Positions 14,605 through 16,906 of a stretch of 50,343 nt of DNA are shown piece by piece. Every line of letters starts with the position of its first letter. The first letter of the stretch is position 1. Position numbers and translations under genes: made by a program. This DNA comes from Minisyncoccota bacterium (GTDB lineage Bacteria > Patescibacteriota > Minisyncoccia > Phycocordibacterales > UBA9973): the NCBI GenBank assembly GCA_041665885.1, contig JBAYHY010000004.1:1-50343 (forward strand). The letters are read 5' to 3'. A model generated the notes under the pieces. That model saw nothing but the letters and a program-made list of their open reading frames with translations, had not been told where the DNA came from and did no database searches.

Positions 14605-14859
14605 CTAGATAAGGTAATTTGCTAATTGTTTTTTAAGATATCTCCTTCCCGAACCGCTTTTCAGAAATCTTTCCCTGCCTTCAGCATCTTTTTTGTTTAT
14701 ATATCCTTCGCAGTAAATTACTTTCCAAGTTTTATCACCCGTGGTCGTTTGACAACCGTGACCAGACAAATGCTCTTTCAATCTTTTCTTTAAATCAGAA
14801 GTATAGCCAATATACCAACTTTTATCTTTTTGATTTTCCAAAAGATATGTCCAAAACAT
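14605..14859 (-). CDS. Small GIY-YIG nuclease
   Basis: TYLL...WYIGYTSDLKKRLKEH...DAEGRERFLKSGSGR. Confidence 0.9.
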   Translation of the reverse strand: MFWTYLLENQKDKSWYIGYTSDLKKRLKEHLSGHGCQTTTGDKTWKVIYCEGYINKKDAEGRERFLKSGSGRRYLKKQLANYLI

Positions 14860-14877: not shown

Positions 14878-15010
14878 GTCGCGTAAAAGCTAAAGCTCAC
14901 GCGACGCGCGTAAACAAAAAAAACACCATATGGTGTTTTTTTTGTCACACAGCTTCATCCCTTTTGGGGCGAAGCCGCGTGGCAAATGTTAAGCATTTGC
15001 TTTACGCGGC
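14878..15010. repeat. Four stacked hairpins between tRNA-Asp and the GIY-YIG gene
   Basis: gtcgcgt/acgcgac (14878-14905), perfect 30-bp palindrome (14915-14944), gcttc...gaagc (14952-14975), gccgcgt/acgcggc (14974-15010). Confidence 0.8.
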
Positions 15011-15083
15011 GCGACCGAGCGGATTTGAACCGCCAACCTCCCGCGTGACAGGCGGGTGCTCTAACCAGTTGAGCTACGATCGC
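15010..15083 (-). tRNA. trnD: tRNA-Asp(GTC)
   Basis: GCGATCG/CGGTCGC acceptor, CCCGC-CTGTCAC-GCGGG anticodon arm. Confidence 0.96.
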
Positions 15084-15130: not shown

Positions 15131-15203
15131 TGTCGGCGGCAGGGAGTGCGCCTGCGACCCCGGGCTTATGAGTCCCGTGCTCTACTAACTGAGCTACGCC
15201 GAC
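15131..15203 (-). tRNA. trnM: tRNA with CAT anticodon (probably elongator Met) with non-canonical D and T loops
   Basis: Fully paired GTCGGCG/CGCCGAC acceptor, CTCATAA loop; T loop CGCACTC, D loop AGTTAGTA. Confidence 0.85.
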
Positions 15204-15245: not shown

Positions 15246-15923
15246 TTAGGTGTTTGATATGTGGTCTATCGCCCCAAGAATCTTGTTTCTAACACACGTG
15301 CCCTTTCTTACTTTCACCCTTAAAATACCTTTGTATTTCCCCATGTCTTTTAAAGAAGCCTTTTTGAGATTTGTTTTTATATAAGTAGTTTTTGAAAATT
15401 GTTCTTTTTTGATATTTAGGAAGTTTATCCAAAACAATTTTATGTTACTTTCTTCCCTCCTGAAAAATTCATTCAAGGTGAGCCGAAAAATCAAAACATC
15501 CTTTTCTATCCTCCACAACTTTAACCATTTAAAGTAAAAACGCATCATGTATGGGTTGCTATTTGTGAAACCGAACTCGCCGTTTTCGTATTTATATCCT
15601 TCTCCCCAATACAAACCAAGGCCAATCATCAAAATATCTCTACTTGACAATTCTCCCACGGCTGTTGCTCCCTCTCGTTTTTGCAAAATATTTCTTGAGA
15701 TCCTCTCTCTTCGCTTCAACTCCGAGTACTTTAAAAGTCCTCTGACAGATTTAATTTTTCCTTTCGTTTTTATTTTTTTTATTGCGGCCCCCGAGAGAAG
15801 GACATCTTTGCACCAAAAACTAAGCGTTGATTTGGCAATGTTTAGTTTTTTGGATATGTCACCCAGGCTTTCGCCGTTTTTCCTCATTTTTATCGTCGTC
15901 TCTTTTATGTGTGGATAGTACAT
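15246..15923 (-). CDS. N-terminal HTH plus LAGLIDADG-like domain protein, free-standing
   Basis: GESLGDISKKLNIAKSTLSFW HTH; GLGLYWGEG.K...FTNSNP motif. Confidence 0.7.
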   Translation of the reverse strand: MYYPHIKETTIKMRKNGESLGDISKKLNIAKSTLSFWCKDVLLSGAAIKKIKTKGKIKSVRGLLKYSELKRRERISRNILQKREGATAVGELSSRDILMIGLGLYWGEGYKYENGEFGFTNSNPYMMRFYFKWLKLWRIEKDVLIFRLTLNEFFRREESNIKLFWINFLNIKKEQFSKTTYIKTNLKKASLKDMGKYKGILRVKVRKGTCVRNKILGAIDHISNT

Positions 15924-15960
15924 AAGGTATATTGTAATCTATGTTCAGTACAATAACAAC

Positions 15961-15989
15961 TTGCATCTTTAATGAAGTTGGTATAAAAT
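15961..15989 (+). promoter_or_regulatory. sigma70 promoter of tRNA-fMet
   Basis: TTGCAT-N17-TAAAAT just upstream of the tRNA. Confidence 0.6.
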
Positions 15990-15998
15990 ACCTTTTAT

Positions 15999-16307
15999 AG
16001 CGGGGTAGAGAAGAGGCATCTCGTAAGGCTCAGCGGTAAATATGGGCCCCCTCTTGGGAAACCTGGAGGTGTGCACTCGTCAAATTCGGAGAAATCCTCC
16101 CTGCCGATTGGCAGAAAGACAATTCCGAGCTAAATTCTCTGAATGATATCAGAGATAAATGTGTAGAGACTAGATGACGGGCTCCTTAATCTATAATTAA
16201 TTTTTTAGAAAGGAGATGGTATAGTCCAGACCACAAACAGAATGGTAGTGAAAACTATAGTGGTAAAGCATAACCTTAAGACCCACGTTCGATTCGTGGC
16301 CCCGCAA
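15999..16307 (+). tRNA. trnfM: Initiator tRNA-fMet(CAT) split by an intron (exons 15999-16030 and 16269-16307)
   Basis: Spliced 71-nt cloverleaf: A1:A72 mismatch, A11:U24, TAAGG-CTCATAA-CCTTA, CCACG-TTCGATT-CGTGG. Confidence 0.92.
16031..16268 (+). ncRNA. Group I self-splicing intron (IC3-like), 238 nt, no ORF
   Basis: 5' exon ends in U33, intron ends in G; IGS UAUG-GGCC (16041-16048) pairs with both exons; P3 CTCGTCA/TGACGGG, P7 GACTA/TAGTC, P4 TTCGGA/TCCGAG. Confidence 0.92.
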
Positions 16308-16312
16308 CAATT

Positions 16313-16906
16313 TTAAATATATCCGTATGGATGAAAAATTTCCTCATATAAAGCGATGATTCTTTTCGCTTCATGCTGGGAAAGTTCAAAAGCCAGTCCC
16401 TCATGCGCTATTCTATTTCTGACCGTATGCACTTCCCAGGCAATGGTAAGTTCCGGAAAAGTATCTTGATTGGCGGATTTTAATTTATCCCCCAGGGTTT
16501 CTCCTTTAAACCCAAGCTGGTCCATAAGACCGTCCAGCATTGAGTCCGCCTCGATAATGGCAAGCTTCCAATCACTCCCGTGTTGAGAAAAAAGATACCC
16601 TAAAACTTTTCCCCAATGTTCATTTTTGGAACCGCCAGATTGTTCATGAAGCCTTTTTTCATATTCGATTTTGTTGTGTGCATATTCCGCTATTTCGTGG
16701 CGCAAATGTTCTTTTTCCTTTTTTCTTATTTCAAAAAGACGCACGATGGTATAACTGATTACAATCAAGAAAAACGTCGCCAAAAAGGACAGAATGGTTT
16801 TGAAAATAATTATTGCCTGATCACTCGTAATATAAGCGAAAAAATCTTTAATGGAGGAGGGCTCGCTACCAAATAAATTGTCCAGATTAAAGTATGATGG
16901 TTCCAT
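16313..16906 (-). CDS. Single-TM protein with C-terminal HEPN/DUF4145-like domain
   Basis: TM near aa 30-58; AIIEAD..LD, RNRIAH (Rx4H) motif. Confidence 0.6.
   Translation of the reverse strand: MEPSYFNLDNLFGSEPSSIKDFFAYITSDQAIIIFKTILSFLATFFLIVISYTIVRLFEIRKKEKEHLRHEIAEYAHNKIEYEKRLHEQSGGSKNEHWGKVLGYLFSQHGSDWKLAIIEADSMLDGLMDQLGFKGETLGDKLKSANQDTFPELTIAWEVHTVRNRIAHEGLAFELSQHEAKRIIALYEEIFHPYGYI

Follow-up and report, generated by a model that had tools for sequence, protein, structure and literature searches.

This locus raises the question of what a free-standing gene is doing between two tRNA genes with CAU anticodons, one of which is interrupted by a group I intron. To our knowledge, a homing endonuclease is hardly ever encoded within the group I introns of bacterial tRNA genes, and for that reason their mode of spread is an open question; those of the cyanobacterial type are, as far as we know, regarded as having no mobility partner. 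The window analyzed was a stretch of 50,343 nucleotides from a Minisyncoccota bacterium (contig JBAYHY010000004.1). The gene in question is an ORF of 225 aa at 15246..15923 on the minus strand (stop codon at 15246-15248), and the label FAM is used here for its protein and for the family of that protein. The arrangement agreed with the sequence-only reading: the gene lies between tRNA-fMet (15999..16308, plus strand) and an odd tRNA-Met (15131..15203, minus strand), is divergent from the former across a 75-nt spacer (15924-15998), and ends 42 nt upstream of the latter on the same strand.

The split tRNA gene was assigned by ARAGORN (option -i) as an initiator tRNA(CAU) with exons at 15999-16030 and 16269-16308 and a 238-nt insert. 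The exons were compared with the unsplit tRNA-fMet genes of relatives, and the exon/intron borders were set by the U/omega-G rule. The joined exons displayed initiator features, namely A-GCGGGG...CCCCGC-AA, a 1x72 mismatch, and A11:U24. The insert (16031..16268, plus strand) is a group I intron placed between U33 and C34 of the anticodon loop. It matched RF00028 at 16021-16248 (plus strand) over the whole model (1-253, Rfam), with 70.6 bits against a cut-off of 50. At its junctions the 5' exon ends with GGCU, the intron reads CAG...AAAG, and the 3' exon resumes with CAUAACC, giving the 5' exon a final U and the intron a final G. It was the sole group I intron in the genome at E<=0.01, and no ORF longer than 37 aa was found inside it, as expected from the earlier statement that it has no endonuclease. 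It shares its Rfam family and the kind of insertion site with the cyanobacterial-type introns in the anticodon loops of tRNA-fMet and tRNA-Leu(UAA), and its intron-core pattern retrieved mostly tRNA-Leu(UAA) introns and some tRNA-fMet introns from other bacteria. Unlike those introns, it has a candidate partner gene 75 nt away.

Apart from tRNA-fMet, the genome has just one tRNA with a CAU anticodon, the elongator tRNA-Met on the other side of the gene. It was recognized by the Rfam tRNA model (54.2 bits) and was missed by ARAGORN because of its T-loop (CGCACUC) and a D-loop lacking GG. The next gene in the same presumed transcription unit is tRNA-Asp(GUC) at 15008..15083 on the minus strand. 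A promoter-like site (TTGTTA-17-TACAAT, 15931..15959, minus strand) lies 7 nt ahead of the FAM ATG, and the FAM mRNA may be leaderless or near-leaderless. No terminator-like site was seen between the ORF and tRNA-Met/Asp, and FAM is probably co-transcribed with these tRNAs. An interpretation of the unusual tRNA-Met T-loop as an immune allele tied to FAM was rejected, since relatives with FAM and relatives without it alike show GTGCAA-type T-loops and D-loops lacking GG.

The full-length AF2 model of FAM reached a pLDDT of 94.5, and the start at M1 was backed by the N-termini (MYYPxIKE) kept in orthologues. Residues 1-44 (15792..15923, minus strand) form a three-helix HTH of the transposase/resolvase type, with helices at 4-15, 20-27, and 31-37 in the AF2 model and near-invariant residues at R14, G17, I23, and W37. 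The HTH was weak in the query itself (HTH_28, E 0.002; 18.4 bits against a Pfam cut-off of 25) and clear in 72 homologues, where HTH_23 matched 51, HTH_38 matched 41, and HTH_28 matched 37 (best E 3e-10); HTH_7 also matched the N-terminal region of homologues. This is followed by a linker consisting of a single 45-residue alpha-helix (residues 45-89, 15657..15791, minus strand; DSSP H45-89, pLDDT > 94). The helix is missing in a short-linker clade, in which HMM positions from about 50 to 90 are gone (L037, L043, L050, and L053). The remaining 136 or so residues (90-225, 15249..15656, minus strand) constitute a C-terminal domain which, when modeled alone by AF2, gave a pLDDT of 92.5 and a pTM of 0.84. 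Near its beginning is the LAGLIDADG-like motif MIGLGLYWGEGYK (residues 99-111, 15591..15629, minus strand), which contains the putative catalytic residue E108. Across 122 members from all clades, E108 was retained in 121, Y105 and G109 were invariant, and K111 and N121 were conserved at 97% and 99%, respectively.

The kinship of this domain to LAGLIDADG proteins is suggested by motif and sequence profiles. The A1 profile matched the second LAGLIDADG domain of I-DmoI with an E value of 4e-4, aligning GLGLYWGEGYK of FAM with GLYVAEGDK of I-DmoI, and hhalign of FAM against the same domain gave a probability of 66.7% and an E value of 5e-5. In the profile alignment E108 falls on E117 of I-DmoI, which is presumably a catalytic residue. 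FAM also has the motif helix, with small residues and a terminal conserved acidic residue (..GxxxxxD/E-G), that is characteristic of the LAGLIDADG homing endonuclease superfamily, and, as in I-DmoI and enzymes of the I-CreI type, the acidic residue at the end of this helix is followed by G-x-K, a short hairpin, a helix, and a strand. Enzymes of this superfamily make Mg2+-dependent, site-specific double-strand cuts with 4-nt 3' overhangs. The Pfam models LAGLIDADG_1/2/3 and WhiA did not match the query at E<=10, the 25 families listed as matched most often by the 72 homologues included no Pfam LAGLIDADG model, and neither NCBIfam nor PHROGs contained a matching model. A Foldseek search of the full model against the PDB gave no significant neighbor, a search of the C-terminal domain against the PDB and BFVD gave nothing at E<=1e-3, and LAGLIDADG proteins were not among the 50 best listed matches of each of three Foldseek searches. 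Thus, of the earlier description of the protein as HTH-LAGLIDADG-like, the HTH was borne out by the homologues, and the second term holds at the level of motif and profile, not at that of Pfam models or structural matches. In contrast to I-CreI and I-DmoI, FAM is not encoded by an intron or intein, it adds the N-terminal HTH and the 45-residue helix, and its third strand is followed by an insertion or extension of about 50 residues. The order of its elements is alpha-beta-alpha-beta-alpha-beta-beta-alpha rather than the alpha-beta-beta-alpha-beta-beta-alpha of LAGLIDADG domains, strand 3 being followed by one additional helix and one additional strand. The best Foldseek match, IspF (E 0.04-0.09), and OmpA-like proteins were dismissed as generic alpha/beta sandwiches. 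A Pfam match to ADPrib_exo_Tox (E 0.011, below the cut-off) was dropped, and the homologues gave no support for it.

The relation between gene and intron was examined in the clade to which this FAM belongs, referred to here as the main clade. In all 79 evaluable species-representative loci the adjoining tRNA-fMet was split by an intron. This count derives from 80 loci, 76 of which were resolved by ARAGORN and 3 more by Rfam, the last being cut by a contig end. All five main-clade loci checked in relatives likewise had an intron-split tRNA-fMet, and within the same genus the intron was present at 4/4 main-clade loci versus 3/26 others (Fisher p = 0.0013). Two alternative insertion sites are used, U33/C34 and U36/A37, which lie 3 nt apart in one loop and are both tied to the main clade. 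The rule runs one way, as FAM predicts the intron and the intron does not predict FAM. Introns without FAM were found in G033 (93% identical to the present one), G031, L213, and L214, and homologous fMet introns without a FAM-type gene occur in two high-GC contigs from outside Patescibacteria (L172 and L232). FAM-less introns scored 75.2 and 63.4 bits on RF00028 versus 47.8-82.1 bits for those linked to FAM, and the distances of FAM and intron correlated only weakly (0.33-0.37). A sister clade (G009, G010, and G062) occupies the same site beside an unsplit tRNA-fMet with the motif kept, and the anticodon arm of that tRNA is identical to that of empty alleles; at least this clade is therefore deduced not to cut the anticodon loop. 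A single genus thus contains alleles that are empty, with the intron only, with a FAM-family gene only, and with both.

The gene itself behaves as an optional element. Compared with the G033 locus by BLASTN and junction reading, a unit of 710 nt (15246..15955) is present here and absent there. The two loci are otherwise 80-92% identical, and homology stops sharply at the FAM stop codon and, on the other side, roughly 32 nt before the ATG. Among 30 evaluable loci of the same genus, the fMet/Met site was filled in 8 (4 main clade and 4 sister clade) and empty in 22. At a further site, between dnaX and tRNA-Gln, a FAM gene was present in G000 and G006, remnants were found in G062 and G012, and 11 checked relatives were empty. 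The present genome itself has a paralogue of an intron-free clade at C10:21394-22083. Split or truncated copies were observed in L025, L042, L111, L116, L158, L188, G012, G062, and G122. The phylogeny of FAM disagreed with that of neighboring genes: FAM was 72-81% identical where GatA was 51-79% identical, with no correlation between the two (rho -0.17), and in G009 a neighbor gene was 68% identical where FAM was only 31% identical. Presence and absence with discrete borders, incongruent phylogeny, and decayed copies, all as expected of a selfish element, were thus found together. Within the subgroup the mean distance was 0.26 for FAM versus 0.40 for GatA, and this better conservation could equally reflect a function useful to the host. 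At the class level, much of the history of FAM looks vertical, because its distances correlate modestly with those of GatA (Mantel 0.39) and its synteny is conserved across the class.

Beyond this locus, FAM is a large family, comprising about 2,700 clusters at 50% identity, that is unnamed in Pfam, NCBIfam, and PHROG and specific for individual tRNA genes. It was present in 33 of 61 relatives and, across the phylum, in 24 of 121 genomes, at 0-5 copies per genome. The genomes of 60 relatives contained 53 family genes. For 45 of these the distance from the end of the gene to a co-directional tRNA was at most 100 nt, for 37 it was at most 20 nt, and in 21 the stop codon fell inside the tRNA (binomial p of about 1e-33, with 40 tRNAs per 650 genes as the null). 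Abutment on the 5' end of a tRNA was rejected as special in itself, given that dnaX and other ordinary genes of these compact genomes also end 6-40 nt before tRNA-Gln; what distinguishes the family is that its members are nearly always the gene preceding a tRNA. Clades and tRNA identities correspond one to one, with those at Gly-GCC, Ile-UAU, Gln-UUG, Val-GAC, and Arg-CCU each monophyletic at 97-100% support, and the identity label changed 21 times on the tree versus 45 times when shuffled. Because most other clades precede intron-free tRNA genes (Gln, Ile, Gly, Val, and Arg) and the sister clade lies beside an unsplit tRNA-fMet, FAM is a tRNA-locus family and not an intron family. The co-occurrence with tRNA introns put forward in the sequence-only reading accordingly applies to this clade and not to the family as a whole, in which the commonness at intron-free loci that this reading had named as refuting was observed. 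In viral contigs, 34 relatives carrying motifs of other clades were found, nearly all within tRNA arrays of large phage-like contigs, and motifs specific to the fMet clade had no match in the viral contigs scanned.

The near-absolute link to the intron in its own clade supports a functional partnership between FAM and the intron, and of mobilization, splicing help, and regulation, which had all been suggested for this protein, mobilization by trans (collaborative) homing fits best. We therefore propose, with a probability of roughly 0.45, that FAM is a free-standing homing endonuclease working with the adjoining ORF-less intron. The protein would combine an HTH head for DNA binding, a rigid helical spacer, and a divergent LAGLIDADG-like domain that, because each chain has a single motif, would act as a dimer. 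The family would colonize sequences 5' of particular tRNA genes in Patescibacteria and, in large phages, their tRNA arrays, the present clade having specialized on the initiator-tRNA locus with the intron as its partner. On tRNA-fMet alleles that lack the intron, FAM would cut the anticodon loop or its vicinity, and repair of the break from an occupied allele would copy in the intron together with the FAM gene 75 nt away (co-conversion). Where the intron is already resident, it would interrupt the target and so protect the chromosome. From the one-way rule and the two insertion sites 3 nt apart, we infer that the target would be the intron insertion site itself and that the intron would confer immunity; DNA cleavage, the target position, and intron protection are all predicted features of this scheme.

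A study by Zeng, Bonocora, and Shub in 2009 reportedly dealt with collaborative (trans) homing (reviewed in PMC3984707). We know of no such pair in cellular genomes, the earlier ones having come from phages, and FAM with its intron would be the first. Two papers (PMC3984707; PMC2790892) describe the free-standing F-CphI with an ORF-less psbA intron in cyanophages and mobE of T4 with the I-TevIII intron. As in these pairs, a free-standing endonuclease-like gene here adjoins a group I intron with no working endonuclease; the proposed interruption of the target by the intron and joint movement by co-conversion would be further likenesses. Unlike them, FAM resides in a cellular chromosome rather than a phage, the host gene is a tRNA and not protein coding, the pairing is conserved across a class of bacteria with two insertion sites, and the putative nuclease is LAGLIDADG-like with an HTH rather than GIY-YIG or HNH. 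SegB of phage T4 and other free-standing homing endonucleases lie in phage tRNA clusters (PMC2988022; PMC13096335). FAM genes are similarly free-standing among tRNA genes, optional, and mobile, with relatives in the tRNA arrays of large phage-like contigs, whereas FAM is unrelated in sequence to the GIY-YIG enzyme SegB, mostly chromosomal in Patescibacteria, and divided into one clade per tRNA identity.

Three other explanations were weighed against collaborative homing. FAM could be a homing endonuclease that recognizes either the spacer or the sequence just 5' of the downstream tRNA-Met, a target broken by its own insertion as in the intron-free clades, with the intron about 110 nt away hitch-hiking by co-conversion. 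Most FAM clades do abut intron-free tRNA genes, the sister clade occupies the fMet/Met site with no need of an intron, and the borders of the insert are sharp and lie within the spacer. We nevertheless consider this unlikely, as tRNA-Met is no longer adjacent in Kaiserbacteria-like and other lineages while the split tRNA-fMet always is, and a passenger intron would not yield co-occurrence in 79 of 79 loci over two insertion sites. A rather improbable reading is that FAM is a domesticated, noncutting DNA-binding regulator of the flanking divergent tRNA promoters. The analogy is with WhiA, a universal, single-copy transcription factor derived from LAGLIDADG proteins that has two degenerate domains without catalytic acids and a C-terminal HTH, and FAM resembles it as a free-standing protein of bacteria in which a LAGLIDADG-type domain is joined to an HTH. 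The position of FAM in a promoter region common to tRNA-fMet, its probable co-transcription with tRNA-Met/Asp, its strong conservation, and a nuclease fold that the structure searches did not confirm are all compatible with such a role. Against it, FAM is patchy and multicopy with pseudogenes, its sites are empty in close relatives, relatives occur in phage tRNA arrays, and its acidic motif residue is near-invariant, unlike the degenerate domains of domesticated LAGLIDADG proteins; the link to the intron would also be left without a reason.

More improbable still is that FAM is a maturase for the tRNA-fMet intron, that is, a LAGLIDADG-type protein that moved out of the intron or was never inside it, and that is retained because the initiator tRNA cannot do without splicing. 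LAGLIDADG maturases are on record, including a bacterial one (PMC3984707), and both the strict dependence of gene on intron and a conservation above that of GatA within the subgroup would suit this role. The co-occurrence expected in both directions for a maturase and its intron was found in one direction only, since the essential tRNA-fMet carries an intron but no FAM in G033, G031, L213, and L214. The suggestion that the protein helps splicing was thereby weakened, particularly by the 93% identity of the G033 intron and by the Rfam scores of FAM-less introns, which are no worse than those of the others. The homologous introns in high-GC contigs also manage without a FAM-type gene, one clade goes with introns of two types inserted at different sites, elsewhere in the family the tRNAs are intron-free, and the N-terminal domain is an HTH of the DNA type. 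Collaborative homing, by comparison, is consistent with what was found at all 79 loci, namely an intron adjoining and co-occurring with a free-standing gene.

If this proposal is true, FAM supplies tRNA group I introns with a mobility partner. The occurrence of all four allele states in one genus makes the partnership of gene and intron directly testable. A wider and more tentative reading is that FAM is an unrecognized nuclease family comprising phylum-wide tRNA-locus homing genes of Patescibacteria chromosomes and large phages, with thousands of members and a clade per tRNA gene, and that at least two clades (tRNA-fMet and tRNA-Thr-GGU) may provide the mobility that was missing for ORF-less tRNA group I introns, which have long counted as immobile. 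The four allele states of the tRNA-fMet locus would then show, side by side, the steps of the Bonocora-Shub pathway that precede entry of the nuclease gene into the intron. Should FAM proteins cut DNA, compact, sequence-specific nucleases of modular build (HTH, rigid spacer, and nuclease) would become available from a new source, and the family would be a previously uncounted force on the tRNA loci of the Candidate Phyla Radiation and of its phages.

As a side observation, the inserts of split tRNA-Thr(GGU) genes gave no match to RF00028 at E<=1e-3, and group-I-like core strings were seen in them by eye.

The layout of the locus was taken from the ORF call, Rfam and ARAGORN. The 225-aa protein FAM is encoded at 15246..15923 on the minus strand (ORF call). 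Divergent to it, with 75 nt between the two gene starts, lies a tRNA(CAU) with a 238-nt insert at 15999-16308 on the plus strand (ARAGORN with intron search), and the Rfam group I intron model was matched over its whole length at 16021-16248 (plus strand; 70.6 bits, gathering threshold 50). The borders were set by the group I rule, by which the 5' exon ends in U and the intron ends in G, placing the intron proper at 16031-16268, between U33 and C34, and the plus-strand exons at 15999-16030 and 16269-16308. The split tRNA reads as the initiator: its exons carry A1xA72, the acceptor stem GCGGGG/CCCCGC, A11:U24 and a discriminator A, and hardly differ from relatives' unsplit tRNA-fMet genes. A search for ORFs of more than 37 aa overlapping the intron found none. 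Downstream, 42 nt past the FAM stop, is a second CAU tRNA, an elongator tRNA-Met with non-canonical T- and D-loops (15131-15203, minus strand; Rfam), followed by tRNA-Asp(GUC) at 15008-15083 (minus strand; Rfam match at 15010-15083). These coordinates bear out in every positional detail the sequence-only reading, which had placed the gene divergent to an intron-containing tRNA-fMet and directly upstream of an odd tRNA-Met, and had seen no endonuclease gene in the intron.

Genome-wide, the elongator tRNA-Met is the only other CAU tRNA, and a third (tRNA-Ile2) was not found in this genome. Its T-loop is CGCACUC instead of UUCGAAU, its D-loop is without GG, and the gene itself was not found by ARAGORN. 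Odd elbows also occur in relatives (T-loops GTGCAA or GATCGTA, GG-less D-loops), with FAM present or absent alike, and the T-loop and D-loop oddities appear to co-vary. The tRNA cluster is bordered by a second small gene of nuclease type, about 150 nt past tRNA-Asp, which encodes an 84-aa stand-alone GIY-YIG domain protein (14605-14859, minus strand; Pfam E 1.9e-16). The anchor gene used as a synteny marker (16313-16906, minus strand; 197 aa, without Pfam family) occurs in 38 of 41 genomes of the genus at only 45-69% identity, its protein being fixed in position and fast-evolving. Elsewhere in the window's genome (G000), ARAGORN -i predicted a 317-nt insert in a tRNA-Arg(UCU) at C3:60197-60596, where a whole-genome RF00028 search found none; the prediction could be spurious or could reflect a divergent intron. 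Close by is a tRNA-Ile whose anticodon is UAU (C3:62627-62701).

In a 122-member maximum-likelihood tree, the genes at tRNA-fMet loci formed one clade (85 rows, support 100/97), which divides into a main clade of 81, including the window gene, and a small sister clade, type B. A scan of GTDB species representatives gave 80 loci (31-81% identity) from Nomura-, Kaiser-, Vogel-, Zambryskii-, Giovannoni-, Sung-, Lloydbacteria and others. In 76 of the 80, ARAGORN found a split tRNA upstream of the gene, at a distance of 71-130 nt (at most 289 nt) from its start and divergent in all of these except L105 and L118; some were labelled Leu or Ser, and all had the exons GCGGGG...CCCCGCAAC of tRNA-fMet. 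For three of the remaining four, Rfam found a group I intron that ARAGORN had missed, and the last, cut by a contig end, was left out, so that the intron was present in 79/79 evaluable main-clade loci. Two insertion sites were observed, GGCU|CAUAACC (U33/C34) and GGCUCAU|AACC (U36/A37), the latter scattered among several FAM subclades. Since FAM no longer adjoins the downstream tRNA-Met in many of these lineages, the conserved partner of main-clade FAM is the intron-split tRNA-fMet. The co-occurrence with tRNA introns that the sequence-only reading had proposed to check thus held for the window's clade; most other clades lie at intron-free tRNAs.

Two family genes share one 2.6-kb metagenome-assembled contig (L140, CALMKR010000215.1): a main-clade copy adjoining an intron-split tRNA-fMet and, 750 nt downstream, a long-branched copy related to type B. 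Many relatives have tRNA-Asp(GUC), which follows one or two genes further down the cluster, interrupted at position 37 by about 205-215 nt (L068, L070, L074, L083, L089, L099, L126, L158, L161; G021:C18:9075-9376). RF00028 matched some of these inserts (G030, G001, G004, G012, G021); the tRNA-Asp of the window is unsplit.

Allele states were compared by locating the same-genus syntenic locus via the anchor gene and scanning it, with L009 and L010 added from the scan of relatives' loci. The intron accompanied a main-clade gene in G000, G061, G021 and G028 and a type B gene in G007; a type B gene stood without intron in G009, G010 and G062, the intron without gene in G033 and G031, and neither was present in about 20 genomes. 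Over these loci, the association with the intron had a Fisher's exact p of 0.0013 for the main clade, or 0.0067 when any family gene was counted. A scan of metagenomes for a conserved intron-core pattern yielded mostly tRNA-Leu(UAA) introns of other bacteria. Among its Patescibacteria-like tRNA-fMet introns, five had an adjacent gene (one split into two ORFs), two had none (L213, L214) and one had a family gene 1.2 kb off; the high-GC contigs carrying fMet introns had no FAM-type gene. From the genus allele states and these gene-less metagenome introns, the rule is one-way: the main-clade gene implies the intron, and the intron does not imply the gene.

The borders of the gene were deduced from G033, among the closest genomes by anchor gene (69% identity). 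G033 matches the window at 91-93% identity in promoter, exons and intron and at 78-85% on the tRNA-Met/Asp side, with an unrelated 150-nt hairpin-rich spacer in place of FAM. This spacer (L062, about 970-1100) contains two strong hairpins, TGACGGCCGTCA within TTATCA...TGATAA and ATGTTAAACAC..GTGTTCAACAT. Homology stops at the FAM stop codon (15246 +/- 3 nt) and restarts 32 nt before the ATG, near 15956; a promoter-like site, TTGTTA-17-TACAAT, lies at 15959-15931. By these borders, the insert unit is 710 nt, comprising the ORF and the promoter-like site. The same pattern holds for the single paralogue in the window's own genome (L290; C10:21394-22083, minus strand; 32% identity, Gln clade), which lies 36 nt from the dnaX stop on one side and 5 nt from tRNA-Gln(UUG) on the other. 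That site is filled in G000 and G006; G062 retains an N-truncated remnant there and G012 a pseudogene, and in 11 relatives checked it is empty, dnaX being directly followed by tRNA-Gln. Within the closest subgroup, identities were 72-81% for FAM, 51-79% for GatA and 49-73% for the anchor gene, the FAM values being uncorrelated with those of GatA (rho -0.17, n = 14); G009 matched the window at 68% in the anchor gene, 60% in GatA and 31% in FAM. Counting against a purely horizontal history are the order GatC-GatA-anchor-tRNA-fMet-FAM, kept across the class, and a modest overall correlation of FAM with GatA distances (Mantel 0.39, p = 0.002).

A word-indexed search with FAM gave 509 relatives, of which the best 120 share 68-81% identity with it and are nearly all unnamed Nomurabacteria/Paceibacteria proteins of exactly 225 aa; an exhaustive search gave 2,697 50%-identity clusters at E<=1e-3, mostly of 215-240 aa. 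The family occurs in 33 of 60 relatives' genomes (0-4 copies each) and, phylum-wide, in 24/121 genomes and 22/108 genera, some copies being full of stop codons. Every match in the relatives was fetched and its locus scanned with the family HMM and ARAGORN. A co-directional tRNA gene began within 100 nt of the gene end in 45 of 53 family genes and within 20 nt in 37, and the stop codon was inside the tRNA in 21, recurrently as a TAG formed by tRNA U8-A9-G10 (p about 1e-33 for family genes before a tRNA, under a generous null model with 40 tRNAs per 650 genes). Tight spacing as such was ruled out as a special feature because ordinary genes, too, run up close to the 5' ends of tRNAs in such compact genomes; in several relatives, for instance, 6-40 nt separate the end of dnaX from tRNA-Gln. 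What is special is the choice of neighbour. The tree contained one clade per tRNA identity, each monophyletic at 97-100% support: Gly-GCC (8 members), Ile-UAU and Gln-UUG (5 each), Val-GAC and Arg-CCU (4 each), and Arg-UCG, Arg-GCG and Glu-UUC (2 each). Label changes numbered 21, compared with 45 for shuffled labels (0/200 shuffles as low). In IMG/VR, relatives of 24-35% identity occurred in 34 contigs of up to 527 kb, some of which may be misassigned as viral, almost all within dense tRNA arrays. A short-linker clade (L037, L043, L050, L053 from G037, G001, G044, G039) adjoins a split tRNA-Thr(GGU) in 4/4 cases; the inserts (177-204 nt, after U36, ending in G) have group-I-like core strings (AAGATACAGTCTAG) and gave no RF00028 match at E<=1e-3.

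The protein had been described as HTH-LAGLIDADG-like. Pfam gave the query itself only a sub-threshold HTH_28 match, and NCBIfam and PHROGs gave nothing useful. The HTH was clear in the N-termini of 72 homologues (HTH_23 in 51, HTH_38 in 41, HTH_28 in 37, HTH_7 in 28). An AlphaFold2 model from the 72-sequence alignment (pLDDT 94.5) predicted a three-helix HTH (4-37), one 45-residue helix (45-89), which the short-linker clade is without, and an alpha/beta domain (94-224); the latter modelled by itself gave pLDDT 92.5 and pTM 0.84. Against all PDB sequences, the family profile matched I-DmoI only (E 4e-4), pairing GLgLYWgEGsK with GLYVAEGDK and E108 with E117, which we take to be catalytic; hhalign of the C-terminal alignment spanned the whole second domain of I-DmoI (66.7% probability, E 5e-5). 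E108 is kept in 121 of 122 members, across all clades, and Y105, G109, K111, N121, W165 and G199 are likewise (near-)invariant. Foldseek searches of both models against PDB/BFVD, however, gave no significant neighbour and no LAGLIDADG protein among the listed matches. "LAGLIDADG-like" is therefore a label reasonably given on profile evidence and does not stand for a demonstrated fold; one possibility is a LAGLIDADG core that has been heavily remodelled, about 50 residues having been added after the third strand.

The most economical interpretation of these sequences is that the family consists of free-standing, homing-endonuclease-like genes specialised on tRNA loci. It is suggested by the optional, patchy distribution, the site- and tRNA-specific clades, the sharp insertion borders, the decayed copies, the relatives in phage tRNA arrays, and the conserved acidic motif with an accessory DNA-binding domain. 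For the main clade and its intron, we favour collaborative (trans) homing, a mechanism described for phages (PMC3984707; PMC2790892), with a probability of about 0.45. The enzyme would target the uninterrupted tRNA-fMet site, the intron would interrupt and so protect it, and the two would travel together by co-conversion, for which one-way co-occurrence is predicted. At the DNA level, the anticodon stem-loop forms an inverted repeat, with the two intron sites 3 nt apart at its centre, and would suit a homodimeric single-motif enzyme. Under this interpretation the LAGLIDADG fold is profile-based and DNA cleavage only predicted, and the unusually high conservation of FAM is a real difficulty.

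Type B genes lie beside intact tRNA-fMet genes whose anticodon arm is identical to that of empty alleles, so that this clade at least must have another target. A homing enzyme with its target in the flank, the intron hitch-hiking, is an unlikely account of the main clade. Of the functions other than mobilisation that the sequence-only reading had allowed, a WhiA-like regulator, for which the HTH could be cited, is rather improbable, as it leaves the optional distribution, the pseudogenes and the intron link unexplained. The strict pairing with the intron could also indicate a maturase for it, the least probable of these alternatives: the predicted asymmetry is opposite to the one-way rule, a 93%-identical intron persists without the gene in G033, FAM-less introns score equally on the Rfam model, homologous introns in other bacteria are without any such gene, and most of the rest of the family is at intron-free tRNAs. 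The remainder of the probability falls to readings not yet imagined.

Searches of the literature on LAGLIDADG proteins, tRNA, Candidate Phyla Radiation/Patescibacteria and group I introns returned no description of the family or of this arrangement. The locus would be a variant on free-standing or collaborative homing, itself known, but set at cellular tRNA genes and based on a nuclease-like family that is unnamed in the protein-family libraries searched.
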